Virus genome (UHGV): UHGV-1944544
Strand: one strand, 5' to 3'
Origin: a virus
DNA length: 10,740 nt
The notes under the pieces are model-generated. The model was not told where the DNA came from. It was given only the letters and a program-made list of their open reading frames with translations, and searched no databases. Positions 2,205 through 8,541 of this stretch are shown here, in pieces (the stretch's first letter is position 1; every line of letters starts with the position of its first letter). The position numbers and the translations under genes were made by a program.

Positions 2205-3203
2205 ATGCAATCACTGAATACCGTTACGGATCGCTTCTCCCTGGTAGAGAAAATCCGCAAACACACACCTCAGAACAATCGCAATTACGTTATCCAGTCG
2301 GTACGAGACACATTCAACTCGCCAGAAACAAAAGAGCGTATCGCACTGGGTGAGATGTATGGTTATTACGGTCATGGTCGCCGGGCGATGCACTATAACA
2401 AAACGAAAAGCCTGGACTTGCCGGAAGTCTCTGTTGTGATGGTAGATGGGAAGCCTGTTGTATTGGAGAACGTGCCGTCAAACAGGACTATCGACATTTC
2501 AATTGACGACAACGGCATTGTTACCCATACACAGGAAATACTGGATACGGACACCGGACGTATTGTTCAGGGTATGATTAATTCTGGCGCAGGTGGTTGG
2601 TCATGGGCTACATCTGGTCCAGATTACTCTGTATCCCTGGTAAAGTCTTTTCACGGTTTTGATTACGTAACAGTGCCTAACTATATCAGCCTCGACAAGA
2701 AAAGCCTGATGCTTGAATCAGCAGAAGAACGCGACGCGGCGATTCATGCGGCACTTATCGAACAAGGTTTTACCGATAATGCTGCTACGGATCTGGTTCA
2801 CCACTTTTCAGCAATGAAGAGTCAGCAAGCCATATTCGAATCAGCACAACGTGAAGTTCTGGAGTCGGAACTGATACATCTTGAAGTGGAAAATATGCAG
2901 CTTCGCGACAAACTACGCGACCAGGCCGCGATGATGGAAAGCCAGGGGGAGAACGCAAAGAAATCCCGCCGTATTTTGCGTGATGCTATCCAGGAAATGC
3001 CTGTTTTTATCAGCGCAGAACAGCGCCGGGCGCTCTGCCGTATGCAGTCAGAGGATGATGCACGCATTGTCGCAGCGATGCTTGAATCCCTGGGGGCTAA
3101 TGCCACTTATGGTCTGCCAATATCAGCCAATAAACAACAAGAAATACCGGTGAAAGAGAACAAGACGGTGACTCCGCTGATCTTTGTGTCTAAGAGGATG
3201 TGA
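2205..3203 (+). CDS. hypothetical protein (332 aa) with a predicted alpha-helical/coiled-coil C-terminal half
   Basis: ATG 2205 preceded by a strong GGAGGG Shine-Dalgarno (2194-2199). The C-terminal region (ESELIHLEVENMQLRDKLRDQAAMMESQ...) is heptad-like and charged. No family recognised. Confidence 0.75.
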   Translation: MQSLNTVTDRFSLVEKIRKHTPQNNRNYVIQSVRDTFNSPETKERIALGEMYGYYGHGRRAMHYNKTKSLDLPEVSVVMVDGKPVVLENVPSNRTIDISIDDNGIVTHTQEILDTDTGRIVQGMINSGAGGWSWATSGPDYSVSLVKSFHGFDYVTVPNYISLDKKSLMLESAEERDAAIHAALIEQGFTDNAATDLVHHFSAMKSQQAIFESAQREVLESELIHLEVENMQLRDKLRDQAAMMESQGENAKKSRRILRDAIQEMPVFISAEQRRALCRMQSEDDARIVAAMLESLGANATYGLPISANKQQEIPVKENKTVTPLIFVSKRM

Positions 3204-3316
3204 GCTAAAAGCTAGCTTAATTTTCTAACACAGTGTGTTTTTATACACTGTTGATCCGACGGCGCGTGATCGAGTAGGATCGCGGTCACTGCTCCGGTAG
3301 CGACTGCCAAAAAAGC

Positions 3317-3340
3317 AAAAGCCGCTGAGAAGCGGCTTTT
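3317..3340 (+). terminator. Rho-independent terminator downstream of the 506-3203 operon
   Basis: Perfect inverted repeat AAAAGCCGCT / AGCGGCTTTT around a GAGA tetraloop, with the GC core followed by TTTT. The flanking A-tract and T-tract make it potentially bidirectional. Confidence 0.55.
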
Positions 3341-3401
3341 GGGTGTATAAATCTCCGGACATAGATTTATACGGTAGATAGATTTTTCACGGTACTATCT
3401 G

Positions 3402-4361
3402 GTGAGTATTTTAAATTCAGTTTCAGTAACTTTCAACACTTCTGAGTATAAAAACAACACTGAATACCACAAAAAAATCAAAGGTCATCAGTTGAGTTTT
3501 TTTGCTCGTCATAGCGGTTTTCTTTCCCCTTCACATAGCGCCATTATTGCCGAGTTCGCCAACCTGGCAGGAGCTACCGATGAATACATGATCCGTCGCT
3601 CATATGCTGATATGTCCGAGATTACAGGACGCAGTATTTCTACTGTGCGCCGGGCATTTACCGAAGCGACGAAGTGCGGAATGCTTGTTAAGCAGCATCA
3701 GGTAGCGAATAACAATGCTCAGGTGTGTAACGTGTACCGGTTTACAACACAATTTCTCCACTTCATTCATGTAGCAATGGAGATAGGGAGTAAGCAGGGC
3801 ATCAAATTTGCCAACGCCACAAAACTGGTTAAGCAGTTGATTTCAAAGGTTCGTTATTTTTTTGAAACTGGGAACCCCCTGTTCAAATTGAACAAGTCCC
3901 CCCATGTTCAAAATGAACAGCCAATAGAAAATAAGAGTCACTCTATAGCCAAAAGAAGAGAAAGATCATGCGCGGTTCAGCCAAAGGCTTCACCAGCAGA
4001 TAGTTCTCAAGCGGATAATGGCTTGCTGGATAAAAAAACAGTAATCAGGGAAGAACATACCAACCACTGCCTGGCGGCAGCAAAAGCGAGAGCTGCAAAG
4101 CGTCGTTCAGACGAGGGGTACGCAAAACGGCAGGCTCTGTATCGTACCGCTGAAAAACTGGCAAAAAAATTTGCATGGTTACGTAGTGCTACCACAGTGA
4201 ATAAGCCCAAACGATCCAGCGCCCTGGATTTCTCTATGGATTATTCTGCTTCCCAGGGATGTGCAACCATCAATGAAGCATTTGACCTGATGAAACAGCG
4301 TGGCTATCGGTCTGAATTTGACCGGGAAGACTGGTCAATTCCGGAGGGCTTTCGGGGATGA
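3402..4361 (+). CDS. helix-turn-helix DNA-binding protein, possibly a replication initiator or regulator; N-terminus uncertain
   Basis: ORF of 319 aa from GTG 3402 with no Shine-Dalgarno. The first in-frame ATG is at 3588, where the nearest AGGAG is 15 nt upstream. HTH-like segment MSEITGRSISTVRRAFTEATKCGMLV, then a basic Lys/Arg-rich C-terminal half. The AT-rich 5' part contains direct repeats. Confidence 0.55.
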   Translation: MSILNSVSVTFNTSEYKNNTEYHKKIKGHQLSFFARHSGFLSPSHSAIIAEFANLAGATDEYMIRRSYADMSEITGRSISTVRRAFTEATKCGMLVKQHQVANNNAQVCNVYRFTTQFLHFIHVAMEIGSKQGIKFANATKLVKQLISKVRYFFETGNPLFKLNKSPHVQNEQPIENKSHSIAKRRERSCAVQPKASPADSSQADNGLLDKKTVIREEHTNHCLAAAKARAAKRRSDEGYAKRQALYRTAEKLAKKFAWLRSATTVNKPKRSSALDFSMDYSASQGCATINEAFDLMKQRGYRSEFDREDWSIPEGFRG

Positions 4362-4501
4362 TGTTGCGATTGACTGTACAATAACCGTGCGGCGGGAATT
4401 TCATCGCTCTAAAATGTATGTTAGAAAATTAAATTGATGTTTCTAATCAAGAATGTATGATTTATATCGTCACTAAAAAACAGCATCTGATAAAAATTCT
4501 G

Positions 4502-4530
4502 TTGATCTTTCTAATGTTCAGGCTTATATT
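4502..4530 (+). promoter_or_regulatory. Candidate sigma70 promoter (-35 TTGATC, 17-bp spacer, -10 TATATT)
   Basis: Hexamers read at 4502-4507 and 4525-4530. It lies about 250 bp upstream of the 4778 ORF and rha, and precedes the alternative-hairpin region at 4581-4620. Confidence 0.3.
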
Positions 4531-4777
4531 CATGCCGTCGTAGCAAATTCTGCGACCGGGTTTAGCAGCCTGAATGTTAGTGCGGACAACCGCAGATATC
4601 CGATATTGCGGTATTTTTGTGTCCGTAAAACCGCGTTACGCCCAAATTATGGTGGGGCGTGATGGGGAGGCTTCGGCCTGCTGGTTTCACTAACGCCAGT
4701 CTGCTAACCCCGTCACGTCCTGCCACCTGTTTAGCAGCGGGTAGCAGGTTGTTAAACCTGTTAGTGAGGCCGTAACT

Positions 4778-5002
4778 ATGGTTAATGCCAATCCTTGCTC
4801 ACGTCCAGAATTCATCTGGCGTTTTCACTCCCTGCAAAAACACTGCGATCACTTCGCAATTGCCGCAACTGAAAAAGAAGCCCGTTCTCTGATCCCGGAT
4901 CAGTATGGCGTTCTCACTGGTCGTTTCTCTACTTCCCCACAACCAAACACCAATCCCTGGTATCGCAATATTACCAATCCCGGCATTGTGGAGGCTCACT
5001 GA
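4778..5002 (+). CDS. hypothetical small protein (74 aa), translationally coupled to the Rha gene
   Basis: ATG 4778 with GAGG 8 nt upstream. Its TGA stop overlaps the rha ATG (TGATG at 5000-5004). No family recognised. Confidence 0.45.
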   Translation: MVNANPCSRPEFIWRFHSLQKHCDHFAIAATEKEARSLIPDQYGVLTGRFSTSPQPNTNPWYRNITNPGIVEAH

Positions 5003-5943
5003 TGGATATCTGCATTCTCGAAAAGCCATCAATGACAAGCATTGAGATCGCGGAGCTGGTGGGAAAACGTCATGACAATGTGAAACGCACTATTGAGACA
5101 TTAGCCAAAGGTGGCGTTATTGTTCGTCCTCAAATTGAGGTTTTCGAAAAAATCAATAACTTAGGACTACGACGTAGTGTTGAGGCTTACGTCTTCGAAG
5201 GCGAGCAAGGCAAGCGCGATAGCATTATCGTCGTCGCGCAGCTCTCTCCCGAATTCACCGCCCGGCTGGTGGACCGCTGGCGCGAACTGGAGAATGCCCG
5301 GGTACAGTTAAAATCAAAAGCCGAAATCCTGGCCGAAATGGCGCAAATGCATCTTGAGCATGAACGCCGGATCAACGCCGTTAATGCCCAGGTAGCCGAA
5401 GTATCCGCACAAGTGTCCAAAGTCGCTGAAACCGTCGAGCAGATCAAGAAAGGCAATATTCCGGAAGGCTACATTGGCTATCGCCAGTTGGCGGCAAAAT
5501 GCGGCCTGACTGAAGCCAAATGCCGCAACCTGGTCAACGCTTACCGGATACCCACTGATACGCATGAGTTTTTGACGCCAGAGGGGGTATTGTCGCGTCG
5601 TACTATTGTGGCCTTATCTCCCTTCATGAATGCCTTTACCCTGATGATGTCGGAGGCTGAACACCGAGGAAAACGCTGGTATCATCCCAGGATGGGGCTA
5701 TTTCAGGCCATTCACCATCCTGTGCCTGAAAGTCCAAAGGCAAACCTGTCGTTGCATACCGCCAGAGAGAAGATTAAAACAGGGTATGCAACCGTATGCC
5801 GTCGAGCATCCTGGCCTGAAAGTGTCTGGGTATGGCCCGAAAGAGGCTCACGGAAAAACTGGCGCACCATTCGCGACGGCAAGATCTGTGCGATTGATTT
5901 ACAGCCAGAAGATGTAGCAGCGACCGACTGGATTGTTAGTTAA
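5002..5943 (+). CDS. Rha-family phage regulatory protein (313 aa)
   Basis: N-terminal SIEIAELVGKRHDNVKRTIE matches the Rha-domain signature (...AE.FGKRHDNV.R.I...). GGAGG Shine-Dalgarno 8 nt upstream of ATG 5002. Confidence 0.8.
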   Translation: MDICILEKPSMTSIEIAELVGKRHDNVKRTIETLAKGGVIVRPQIEVFEKINNLGLRRSVEAYVFEGEQGKRDSIIVVAQLSPEFTARLVDRWRELENARVQLKSKAEILAEMAQMHLEHERRINAVNAQVAEVSAQVSKVAETVEQIKKGNIPEGYIGYRQLAAKCGLTEAKCRNLVNAYRIPTDTHEFLTPEGVLSRRTIVALSPFMNAFTLMMSEAEHRGKRWYHPRMGLFQAIHHPVPESPKANLSLHTAREKIKTGYATVCRRASWPESVWVWPERGSRKNWRTIRDGKICAIDLQPEDVAATDWIVS

Positions 5944-5950
5944 TAGATTT

Positions 5951-5972
5951 GCCCCGGTCATGCCGGGGCTTT
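5951..5972 (+). terminator. Rho-independent terminator after rha
   Basis: GCCCCGG / CCGGGGC 7-bp GC-rich stem with loop TCATG, followed by only TTT, so the U-tract is short. Confidence 0.45.
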
Positions 5973-5999
5973 AACTACTAAGTGACCGGACACAGCAAA

Positions 6000-6320
6000 A
6001 TGTATGCCACGAAAAAAATTGATTTCACTTATTCTTCCGCCACAATTGAGCGGCGCTTCACCCTCATTAGAGAGTTGGAACTGTCAAAAGTCTGGTATCA
6101 AATTCTACTGGATGAAGAGTTCTCACTGATGATAATGGCTGAAAAAGAAGCAATGCCGAATGACCGGCATAAAGTCATTGCCAGCCTTGACCTGGTGACA
6201 AACAGATACTGGGAGACAGAGGAACTGCGTGAAGCGGGAGTAATTCGTGACCTGATGGAGAGTTCCGTTCCCCGCCGCTATCGTGCGGGAAACGAAATCT
6301 CCGTGATTAAAGGGGCTTAA
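6000..6320 (+). CDS. hypothetical protein (106 aa from ATG 6000; the ORF opens at GTG 5982)
   Basis: Open frame with a weak ribosome-binding site, starting only 10-28 bp after the rha terminator. Its TAA stop overlaps the stop of the convergent minus-strand gene. The call as a real gene is uncertain. Confidence 0.4.
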   Translation: MYATKKIDFTYSSATIERRFTLIRELELSKVWYQILLDEEFSLMIMAEKEAMPNDRHKVIASLDLVTNRYWETEELREAGVIRDLMESSVPRRYRAGNEISVIKGA

Positions 6321-6709
6321 AGCTCACCAGCACGCTGTTTTTCAAGCGTAGATTTAACATTGGGCGCTTTCCCTTTAAAAGAATGGAAAGTGCCACATTT
6401 TTCTGTTTTAACCTCGCGCAGAGCTTCGCCATCGGCGTTCTGCCATTGATGAGATAACGTCATATCACCGCGAGAAGGAACATCCAGCGAGTACAACGTG
6501 TAAGTTCCCCCCATCTCGGCATACTCCTGGAACACATAGCTCATTACGTCAGATTCAGTTTTCCGGTGCGCGTTATCGACCTTATTCCCATTCAGAAATA
6601 TGGCGTTCGGATAGATTTTTATATCAAACCTACCGCACTTCACTTGTAAATTCCCGGCGTGAGCGATCAAAGGGAAAGCTGCCAATAAAGCAATAGCTAA
6701 TCTTTTCAA
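6317..6709 (-). CDS. secreted (periplasmic) protein with Sec signal peptide, 130 aa
   Basis: TTG start at 6709 with GGAGG 6 nt upstream. N-terminus MKRLAIALLAAFPLIAHA-GN is a classic signal peptide with an AxA cleavage site. Mature part has two Cys (VKCGRF, TEKCGTF). Lies 20 bp downstream of the preceding gene. Confidence 0.7.
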   Translation of the reverse strand: MKRLAIALLAAFPLIAHAGNLQVKCGRFDIKIYPNAIFLNGNKVDNAHRKTESDVMSYVFQEYAEMGGTYTLYSLDVPSRGDMTLSHQWQNADGEALREVKTEKCGTFHSFKGKAPNVKSTLEKQRAGEL

Positions 6710-6729
6710 TTCTGCCTCCGCTGCGTAAC

Positions 6730-7350
6730 TTATTGCCCGTATTGTTTACACCATTGCTCTGCCATTTGTGGGGCTAAAGGCCCAGCCACTGCGCTGTATT
6801 CTGCTGTTTTGCTTTGCACGCATGAGGCAGATGGTTTTTTATTGCGCTGTTCCTTGAGTTGTTTTTCATAGGCAACGATGGCATCGAAACCAGCTACATC
6901 TTCCTCCCTCATGAACCCTTTCTTGATCAGAAACTGCTGACCTTCCGGCACCAATGCTAGAGCATACAACGGCTGCAACAGCTCCCCCAATCCTTCCCGG
7001 CTATAAACTTGAAACTGCATCCAGCTTTTACTTAACGCTGTCATAGTGTCTTTGGTGGAATAGCCAGCCTTGCGTATAGCCTTGTCTAATCGATCTGCTG
7101 AATACGCAAACAAACAGAAATCGCCCTTTCCTGTAAACCCCGGTTCAACCGGTTGCAACGTGATATTTTCTTTTTCGCAAAAGTCTATAAATTCATCAGG
7201 TCTATCGGTTTTATAGTCCCGCAATACCTTCAGTCCAGCCTCATACTTTGCAGGTAACGCGCCTGCATAGGCAGCATTAAGAGAAACTCCCCCCAATATA
7301 ACCGCGAGCACTGCTCCCAAAACCCTTAACTTCACAAAACCATCCTTCAT
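6730..7350 (-). CDS. secreted (periplasmic) protein with Sec signal peptide, about 207 aa
   Basis: Start placed at the internal ATG (7350-7348), which yields MKDGFVKLRVLGAVLAVILGGVSLNAAYA-G, a signal peptide. The 47 codons upstream in the track ORF are Phe-rich, AT-driven and look non-coding. Mature part has four Cys. Confidence 0.65.
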   Translation of the reverse strand: MKDGFVKLRVLGAVLAVILGGVSLNAAYAGALPAKYEAGLKVLRDYKTDRPDEFIDFCEKENITLQPVEPGFTGKGDFCLFAYSADRLDKAIRKAGYSTKDTMTALSKSWMQFQVYSREGLGELLQPLYALALVPEGQQFLIKKGFMREEDVAGFDAIVAYEKQLKEQRNKKPSASCVQSKTAEYSAVAGPLAPQMAEQWCKQYGQ

Positions 7351-7564
7351 GTAAAAAAACTGAAGTTTTATGTTACAAAAGCAAACATCTACGCCAAAAT
7401 GACCTAGGCCAAATTCAGCGCGAATAAAAAATTCAAAAAAATTGTTGACACTATTCTGGAAATCACAATCTGGACAAAATCCATTACGCAAACGGCTCCC
7501 GTTGAAGGTTCTTTTGACGACTAACTTTCAGCCGATGCGCGGTAGGGAGTCATAACGCCAAAGC

Positions 7565-7589
7565 AGGCCGCCATGTGCGGCCTTTTTTT
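7565..7589 (+). terminator. Strong intrinsic-terminator-like hairpin in the leader of the 7616 gene
   Basis: AGGCCGC / GCGGCCT 7-bp stem with loop CATGT, followed by seven T. Plus-oriented, ending 26 bp before ATG 7616, with no plus-strand gene immediately upstream. Confidence 0.6.
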
Positions 7590-7615
7590 GTGCCTGCTAT
7601 CGTGGAGTAAAAGCC

Positions 7616-8269
7616 ATGCAAAAGATCGCAATATTCAGCCTTTCTACTAACAAGCCGCTGATGGCTACAGCAGTCCTGAAAGACGGCGCGCTTGTAATTG
7701 ACAAAGTAAAGCCGCTCCCTGCATCTGCTATTGAACAAAAACGAAAAATTCCACCAGTAATTGCCGAGCTGCGTAAAAGTGAATTTAAGGTGCTGGTTGA
7801 CGAAATCACGCCAACCATTTCAGCCGGTACAGGTGCCAGCCAGGTAACATTAAAAACACGGCACGCCGACGGCAGAGCAGCGATCATTGTCGGCATGGAG
7901 AGATACCGGGAGCTGAAACTACAAAGGCTGCTATCCCTGCCTGACAAGAACAAAGGGGCATTTGAGATCCCCGACTCTATCGTCGATACCGAATACAACG
8001 GCAACGGTGAAGAGGTTTATCGAGTTAACTGGCAAGATATCCGACCAGAGCACATCCTGATGATTCTGTGCTGCTATGCAACGGTATACCACAATGTTGC
8101 CAGCGCGGATTACCTGAAACAAATGACAGGAGCGGTAGAGAAAGAAAACAAAGCAGGGATAATGGCCTCGTTCCTGTCCATTATCAGCGATCAAAAAGCT
8201 AAAGCAGGAAATACCCAACCAAAATCGCTGGCCGGGCAAGTAATTGATGAAGATACGGTGATACTTTAA
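7616..8269 (+). CDS. hypothetical protein (217 aa)
   Basis: ATG 7616 with GGAG 8 nt upstream. No signal peptide, no transmembrane segment and no recognised motif. Confidence 0.7.
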   Translation: MQKIAIFSLSTNKPLMATAVLKDGALVIDKVKPLPASAIEQKRKIPPVIAELRKSEFKVLVDEITPTISAGTGASQVTLKTRHADGRAAIIVGMERYRELKLQRLLSLPDKNKGAFEIPDSIVDTEYNGNGEEVYRVNWQDIRPEHILMILCCYATVYHNVASADYLKQMTGAVEKENKAGIMASFLSIISDQKAKAGNTQPKSLAGQVIDEDTVIL

Positions 8270-8541
8270 TCAACTCAGTAGCTTTGTTAACTCCCTTAAT
8301 ACCAGGTAGAAGAGTAACAAAAATACTAACGCCAGTATTTGCGTGGTCAACGAGGCGTTCATAAACAGAACAATTAGCTTTAACAATTCGAGAATAACGT
8401 CCATGTCATTCACACTATTTAATTTTTAATCTACAGCCAGCAAACAATGAAGCTGCCCCCCGCATAAAGATTAATGAAAGTCACTTGTTGACAGTCAATA
8501 AATTCAGTGCGGCGAAGAAACTCTGTCTATACGGATAGTGC

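Follow-up and report, generated by a model that had tools for sequence, protein, structure and literature searches.

Among the closest known relatives of the locus considered here is the lytic replicon of bacteriophage P1, for which the sequence record states that the product of repL acts 'at oriL that is internal to repL'. In the P1 system, expression of RepL alone drives replication of oriL DNA (PMC9948254), the amplification driven by RepL falls about 7- to 11-fold upon synonymous changes in the 43-bp A/T-rich element AT2 (repL nt 495-540; Huan et al. 2023, PMC9948254), and replication in trans was obtained with a minimal fragment, T5; the exact sequence of oriL and the mode of its recognition by RepL are still described as undefined (PMC9948254). 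An architectural parallel is found in phage lambda, where the linker-coding DNA of gene O contains a 39-bp AT-rich region and four dyad-symmetric iterons that bind one dimer each (PMC6022878). The subject of the present analysis is an open reading frame (ORF) at positions 3402-4361 (plus strand) of a 10,740-nucleotide stretch of the virus genome UHGV-1944544, the whole of which is called the window. With a probability of roughly 0.8, this ORF is repL, the gene of the lytic (vegetative) replication initiator of a D6-like, P1-family phage-plasmid, with GTG at 3402 as start codon and oriL inside the gene.

The ORF encodes 319 amino acids followed by a stop codon, with GTG as first codon. At the DNA level, the region is 99.6% identical to a 94-kb Escherichia marmotae plasmid (NZ_CP099353) and 91% identical to phage D6, and in both (PGAP and D6 annotation) the gene has matching boundaries and start and the product name 'lytic replication protein' (repL). 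RepL of phage D6 (MF356679, orf20) and of D6-like plasmid prophages is 95% identical as a protein and shares the GTG start, the synteny portal-pro-repL-c4/icd, and the identical repeats and A-tract described below; the window differs from D6 in that its repL is joined downstream to the other icd-antirepressor module, the gene itself being essentially the same. P1 RepL matches the ORF protein with 27.8% identity over amino acids 28-319 (tblastn, E = 5e-17), phrog_2418 covers amino acids 11-319 (E = 1.4e-129), and a PHROG labelled 'replication initiation O-like' matches as well (E = 5e-7). A Pfam scan of the ORF protein returned only HTH_36 and not PF26868 (Phage_P1_RepL); PF26868 is carried by homologues whose identity to it is 98%, 64% and about 32%, respectively. 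The NCBIfam search of the protein gave no match, and the family is small, with 26 cluster representatives out of 1.84 billion at E ≤ 1e-3. An earlier interpretation made from the letters alone (the sequence-only reading) had proposed a Rep-like protein of a mobile element acting on repeats; the tblastn, PHROG and PF26868 evidence specifies this as a replication initiator of the P1 RepL family, and the notion of an initiator that acts on repeats has held, while the location of these repeats and the supposed non-coding 5' end have not. The gene is thus already known and its public annotation is correct; the label 'lytic replication protein' is found on repL in hundreds of phage-plasmids of E. 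coli and Salmonella, and in the window repL has prt-pro (head genes) on one side and the immunity region c4/icd on the other.

As the homologous P1 repL contains oriL internally, the likely origin of the window is placed in the middle of the gene, where the following features were located:

Positions 3792-3986, unstranded: zone of suppressed synonymous change (codons 131-195) by third-position identity, candidate oriL.
Positions 3875-3894, unstranded: repeat 1, a C-run followed by the perfect palindrome TGTTCA-AAT-TGAACA (3880-3894), CCCCCTGTTCAAATTGAACA.
Positions 3900-3919, unstranded: repeat 2, a C-run followed by the perfect palindrome TGTTCA-AAA-TGAACA (3905-3919), CCCCATGTTCAAAATGAACA.
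Positions 3920-3968, unstranded: A-rich tract (51% A, 65% A+T) that aligns with P1 AT2 and ends in AAAGATCA with a GATC at 3964-3967.

Both 20-nt repeats conform to the consensus CCCCC-TGTTCA-N3-TGAACA and are situated about 470 bp downstream of the 5' end of the ORF; the two perfect 15-bp palindromes, 25 bp apart, are the sole such sites in 10.7 kb. The window gene was compared with that of the E. fergusonii type, which is 72% identical as DNA and 64% identical as protein. Among codons that specify the same amino acid in both genes, the third position is retained in 39 of 44 within codons 131-195 and in 59 of 144 elsewhere (Fisher test, 9e-9). A peak of synonymous conservation occurs at the same place, independently, in the Klebsiella, Enterobacter and metagenome pairs (14/14, 15/16 and 14/15, respectively), and no ORF of at least 50 amino acids in another frame overlaps the central zone. 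The DNA of this zone is therefore under constraint. All four half-sites and the C-runs are unchanged throughout a set of 11 D6-type sequences plus the E. fergusonii type; in the same set the N3 spacers vary, including a non-synonymous change from AAT to TTT in the D6-type variant L010. The P1-type population is uninformative on variation, since its 7 full-length genes (6 distinct sequences) are all at least 97% identical to P1. Repeats and A-tract together encode amino acids 158-189, which fall mostly within a linker predicted to be disordered (AlphaFold).

Paired palindromes followed by an A-rich run were found in every RepL lineage examined, with all three reading frames in use. The half-sites are:

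E. fergusonii type: TGTTCA/TGAACA.
Klebsiella, Enterobacter and metagenome types: TGATCA-N3-TGATCR.
Pantoea: RGTCA-N3-TGAMC.
IMG/VR lineage L094: TGTCA / AGTCA-N3-TGAYA.
P1: TGTCA-N3-TGAYR.

Across P1, the Klebsiella type, Pantoea and L094 the palindromes are spaced by 24-25 bp. In P1 itself the repeats CCCCCATGTCAAAATGATA and CCCCCTGTCAGGATGACG stand 24 bp apart, directly before AT2; according to its primer, fragment T5 starts at CCCCTCCCCCTGTCAGGATGACG and hence contains P1 repeat 2 together with AT2. The resemblance between the window and P1 extends to homology over the whole length of RepL, the order of its domains and the C-terminal IPxGFRG motif, and in both genes paired C-rich palindromes 24-25 bp apart precede, at the same position, an A-rich tract ending in GATC, which in P1 is the functionally defined AT2. 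The paired palindromic repeats and the A-rich tract are thus the likely origin, the palindromes being candidate RepL-binding sites, and the tract at 3920-3968 is the positional equivalent of AT2 and a candidate DNA-unwinding element. By this scheme, RepL dimers would bind, via their winged-helix domain, the two tandem palindromes at 3875-3919 within their own gene; binding would promote melting of the adjoining A-rich tract, where the host replisome could then be loaded. A side observation concerns the Klebsiella, Enterobacter and metagenome lineages (L085, L087 and L089), whose TGATCA-N3-TGATCR pairs endow the repeats to which RepL would bind with four Dam (GATC) sites, a hint of methylation-sensitive control of the origin in these lineages.

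The window also differs from P1. The proteins share about 28% identity, the half-site of the window (TGTTCA/TGAACA) is not that of P1 (TGTCA/TGAYR), the window gene starts with GTG, and it follows prt-pro, whereas P1 repL follows the immI-kilA region. Several points speak against the assignment as set out above. The window has no kilA upstream of repL and no C1 operator of the P53/Op53 type, the P1 C1 operator consensus giving 0 matches in the window at up to 3 mismatches, and a sigma-70-like sense promoter was not found between the terminator at 3316-3341 (see below) and the repL start. The A-tract reaches 65% A+T as compared with about 80% for P1 AT2. P1 has a DnaA box, TTATCCACA, next to its repeats; the window has no perfect box, either next to its own repeats or elsewhere, and near-matches occur at chance level. 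Mutagenesis in P1 was confined to AT2, the C-rich/palindrome part having been left unmutated (PMC9948254), and in P1-like lineages the repeats also yield a recurring peptide, P-x-Q-N/S-D, which would allow a role at the protein level. Apart from these points, the density of GATC in the window is at chance level, and its GC skew is governed by gene orientation and was left out of account.

In this context, two further groups of origins invite comparison. With lambda O and its origin the window shares the architecture only, namely an origin within the initiator gene, dyad repeats next to an AT-rich region, and a location in the DNA for the linker between the N-terminal DNA-binding and the C-terminal domains. 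Homology to lambda O was not detected (hhalign of the RepL family profile, probability 0.1%), the sole link being the weak match to the 'O-like' PHROG at E = 5e-7, and for this reason the parallel is one of analogy and not of membership; moreover, the window has two repeats instead of four and no gene for a P-like helicase loader downstream of repL. The initiators of iteron plasmids (Rep_3/RepA, pi, TrfA) likewise combine a winged-helix protein with repeated sites next to an AT-rich region. On the other hand, the repeats of the window are palindromic, two in number and intragenic, the ORF protein has no match to Rep_3 or another plasmid Rep family in Pfam, and the non-coding DNA holds no array of three or more 17-22-bp direct repeats, Tandem Repeats Finder reporting only the 1.9-copy repeat at 3361-3394.

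While the repL gene itself is routine, a useful by-product of its comparison bears on oriL of P1 and its recognition by RepL. PAC vectors and synthetic biology make use of RepL to raise copy number. Palindromes at fixed spacing, an A-rich tract and frozen synonymous sites make up a concrete and cheaply testable candidate for the RepL-binding site, and the comparative pattern suggests a way to choose orthogonal RepL/oriL pairs. In the searchable literature no description of conserved mid-gene palindromes was found. The palindromes may be regarded as a modest, directly testable candidate lead on the interaction of RepL with oriL.

A second region of constraint lies at the extreme 5' end of the gene. 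In codons 1-20 the protein is poorly conserved, yet 11 of 11 synonymous sites are kept (p = 1e-4), so that some element at the level of DNA or RNA must overlap this end. The features of this end and of the DNA upstream are:

Positions 3408-3436, minus strand: candidate antisense promoter in codons 3-12, with TTGAAA (3436-3431), a spacer of 17 nt and TAAAAT (3413-3408); 10/12 matches to the consensus.
Positions 3305-3401, minus strand: candidate antisense RNA or structured repL leader with three hairpins, the terminator last; fold -30.6 kcal/mol, z = -4.8.
Positions 3316-3341, unstranded: G+C-rich hairpin in the interval from pro to repL, flanked on either strand by T-runs (bidirectional intrinsic terminator), with compensatory changes across lineages.
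Positions 3361-3394, unstranded: 17-bp tandem repeat (ATAGATTTATACGGTAG / ATAGATTTTTCACGGTAC; 1.9 copies by Tandem Repeats Finder), shortly before the start codon.
Positions 3219-3290, plus strand: conserved element of about 70 bp just after the pro stop codon, comprising TTTCTAA, the inverted repeat ACAGTGT-N8-ACACTGT, TTGATC (invariant), about 19 nt, and GRGTAGGATCG.

The conserved patches of codons 1-20 coincide exactly with the minus-strand hexamers TTGAAA and TAAAAT, and D6-type polymorphisms spare both. In the E. fergusonii type the hexamers and their spacing are identical, the spacer sequence is different, and the site is the sole promoter-like one of the region; the RNA that would be made from it is again strongly structured, with four hairpins of different sequence (-51.2 kcal/mol, z = -7.7). 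This suggests an antisense RNA directed against the repL leader, analogous to P53as of P1. The same conservation could arise if the first 40-60 nt were kept for translation initiation at a GTG without a Shine-Dalgarno (SD) sequence, which would call for an unstructured, A/U-rich start region. Indeed, an SD sequence is lacking, the start region is A/U-rich with no significant mRNA structure (z = -0.36), and 11 of 11 synonymous sites are frozen in codons 1-20. The patches, however, are two minus-strand hexamers at 17-bp spacing with 8 nt between them free to change; downstream of the candidate promoter a minus-strand terminator and a strongly structured RNA occur in both lineages; and the lytic replicon of P1 carries a comparable antisense promoter (P53as / PaskilA), located in the 5' end of its first gene. 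Translation initiation as the cause of the constraint is a possibility to be taken seriously, at odds below even.

Taken together with the mid-gene repeats, a wider proposal may be formulated, for which the chances appear evenly balanced: the RepL recognition sites of oriL would be the palindromes flanked by C-runs, their half-sites (GTCA, GTTCA, GATCA) would have co-evolved with RepL in each lineage and would define specificity groups of P1-like lytic replicons, and the D6/E. fergusonii clade would in addition control repL by an antisense RNA of about 95 nt from the promoter inside codons 3-12.

Some further observations on the DNA around the start are recorded here. A 5' mRNA hairpin at 3444-3507 was rejected (z = -0.36, almost no covariation). 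Just upstream of the start (3345-3394), AGATTTWT occurs three times, as an inverted pair GTATAAATCT / AGATTTATAC (3345-3372) in combination with the 17-bp tandem repeat. The inverted or tandem motif GTATAAATC was rejected as a C1 operator of the D6 type; it is found at repL and is not scattered through the 91-kb genome of D6. The element at 3219-3290 contains GATC sites at 3253, 3268 and 3278, is followed by the terminator with its compensatory changes, and is kept in six of six pro-repL lineages despite an identity of only about 30% among their RepL proteins. Its first part (3219-3250) resembles LPlyz, but an assignment as a P1-type late promoter is unsupported, as the motif recurs nowhere else in D6.

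Returning to the central zone, one has to ask whether the repeats are kept for what they encode. If they were conserved as a tandem peptide (P-x-Q-N/S-D, twice), they would not be DNA-binding sites, and the origin would consist of the A-rich tract only or lie elsewhere. A repeat of the form P-x-[CSGD]-Q-[NS]-[DE] with a period of 8 amino acids does occur in most P1-like and in more distant RepL homologues. In the window, however, the spacing of 25 bp means that repeat 2 is read in a frame different from that of repeat 1, and the resulting peptides, PLFKLNK and PHVQNEQ, are unrelated. In the window one hexamer begins at codon position 2 and the other at position 3; in P1 both begin at position 1, and in the Klebsiella type, which has a different palindrome (TGATCA) in a third frame, both begin at position 3. 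Because the copies are read in different frames and encode different peptides, the conserved object is the DNA and not the peptide. Along these lines, the zone shows frozen synonymous sites side by side with several amino-acid changes, the half-sites are constant while the N3 spacer varies (the non-synonymous change in L010 included), and disorder is predicted for most of the segment. Conservation for the sake of the peptide is accordingly unlikely.

The 5' part of the ORF had been interpreted quite differently in the sequence-only reading, by which the first 190 bp or so would be non-coding iteron or regulatory DNA, the protein would begin at ATG 3588, and the origin would lie at 3204-3600. 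Its descriptive observations were largely accurate: the GTG has no SD sequence (the 4-mers AGGA, GGAG, GAGG and AAGG are absent from the 20 nt upstream of 3402), the first ATG, at 3588, is codon 63 and is thus preceded by 62 codons, and the first 190 bp are AT-rich, if mildly so (61% A+T, 53.5% in the remaining ORF). The start codon is as follows:

Positions 3402-3404, plus strand: GTG start codon, the sole canonical start between the nearest in-frame stop upstream (3375) and the family-invariant G28.

Upstream of M63, residues G28, H45, N54, L55, A56, T59, D60 and Y62 are invariant or nearly so in family alignments, and G28, N54, L55, A56 and T59 are invariant even across lineages only about 30% identical. 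M63 itself is replaced by Ile in the E. fergusonii-type protein. As family-invariant residues precede M63 and only GTG 3402 lies upstream of G28, translation starts at 3402. The codon at this position is ATG in the D6-type variants L007 and L010 and in the E. fergusonii-type gene. When the latter is compared with the window, 15-19 of 20 amino acids are kept per 20-codon window in codons 21-60, and third positions of identical codons match in 14 of 36 within codons 21-62; amino acids are kept while third positions drift, as is typical of selection on a protein, and the first 190 bp are therefore coding. AlphaFold places helices 19-25, 28-37 and 43-56 within a well-modelled N-terminal domain.

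The repeats that had been cited for this region fare less well. CATAGCG (3510 and 3534) and AACACT (3435 and 3456) are present as claimed, but of the two GTATAAA copies one (3345) lies outside the ORF and the other at 3446, and repeats of this kind occur at chance level: repeated 7-mers in 3402-3591 number 4, a value reached by about 10% of dinucleotide shuffles, which yield 1.5 ± 1.5, and repeated 8-mers are absent. Repeated 6-mers are in slight excess (12 vs 5.5 ± 2.7), and the middle of the ORF has a repeat score at least as high as that of its 5' end. None of the pairs is kept in the 72%-identical E. fergusonii-type gene, and Tandem Repeats Finder detected no array inside the ORF. What still speaks for iterons at the 5' end is the SD-less GTG, the mild AT-richness with the excess of 6-mers, and the frozen synonymous sites of the first 20 codons. 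Against this stand the N-terminal extension conserved in homologous proteins (G28, N54-A56 and T59 invariant, M63 not conserved), an observation that the sequence-only reading had itself named as refuting, the coding signature of codons 21-62, the GTG/ATG polymorphism at the start codon, the helices predicted at amino acids 19-56, the lack of conservation of the 5' repeats and of any tandem array, and the mapping of P1 origin function to the second half of repL. The proposal of a non-coding 5' end is largely refuted and very improbable.

The architecture of RepL, mainly as predicted by AlphaFold, comprises the following parts:

Positions 3456-3872 (amino acids 19-157), plus strand: N-terminal folded domain, which includes the winged helix-turn-helix.
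Positions 3603-3743 (amino acids 68-114), plus strand: winged helix-turn-helix, with helices 68-75 and 79-91 and strands 95-101 and 108-114 (beta-hairpin).
Positions 4050-4184 (amino acids 217-261), plus strand: long basic alpha-helix, with the conserved motifs AAAKAR and EKLAKKFAW.
Positions 4332-4358, plus strand: C-terminal motif W-x-IP-x-GFRG, with W311, I313, P314 and G316-G319 invariant in an 11-sequence alignment.

The segment of amino acids 161-215 is disordered in the model (pLDDT below 50), and a short C-terminal element follows the helix 217-261. RepL would thus consist of a winged-helix DNA-binding domain (about 19-157), a disordered linker (about 161-215) and a basic, helical C-terminal part with the IPxGFRG motif. 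Further invariant columns of the family are T81, V82, R84 and A85, and Pfam HTH_36 matches amino acids 41-93 with E = 0.0036, below the cut-off. The helix-turn-helix followed by a basic tail that had been recognized from the letters is borne out by the HTH_36 match, the modelled winged helix and the basic C-terminal half, the long helix forming the core of the tail. A Foldseek search of the model against the PDB returned nothing at E ≤ 1e-3, and the PDB sequence search gave a best E not below 0.19. That the protein is instead a non-replicative winged-helix transcription regulator, as its structural neighbours (mostly of the MarR/CRP/TFE type) and the weak PDB sequence matches to GntR/MarR proteins might suggest, is hardly credible in view of the whole-length homology to P1 RepL, whose expression alone amplifies a plasmid, the 'replication initiation O-like' PHROG match (E = 5e-7), and the occurrence of the same fold in initiators such as 4pta and DnaD-N.

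Downstream of repL lies an immunity module of the P1 immI type (4524-5943), preceded and overlapped by promoter-like sequences:

Positions 4434-4461 and 4502-4530: two sigma-70-like promoters, counterparts of P51a/b of P1.
Positions 4524-4576: a1/b1 targets (Rfam RF03163).
Positions 4645-4730: C4 antisense RNA (Rfam RF01695, 70 bits).
Positions 4778-5002: icd (NF033153).
Positions 5002-5943: antirepressor of the Rha/Ant type, 313 amino acids.

Phage D6 has two icd-antirepressor modules, and related plasmids carry repL-c4-icd some 50 kb away from the sequence that begins near 4988, both in the same orientation. Among 595 matching records in PLSDB, not one spans 80% or more of 3402-8300 at a single site. 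As no PLSDB plasmid has the arrangement of the window in one piece, the window appears to be joined near 4988, within icd, and to be either a recombinant of two paralogous modules or an assembly chimera.

Beyond the antirepressor, the stretch 5982-8269 matches the pmgF-orf80-simB-mat region of D6 and holds three genes with PHROG matches and without a Pfam match:

Positions 5982-6320: phrog_7349.
Positions 6730-7491, minus strand: phrog_12786.
Positions 7616-8269: phrog_1837, equal in length to mat of D6.

On the other side of repL, the homologue of the head-processing protein Pro (2205-3203) matches phrog_1801, a family that bears the label 'tail fiber protein'. The naming of pro is inconsistent in public resources, the RefSeq record of P1 giving 'tail fiber protein' and that of D6 'head processing protease'.

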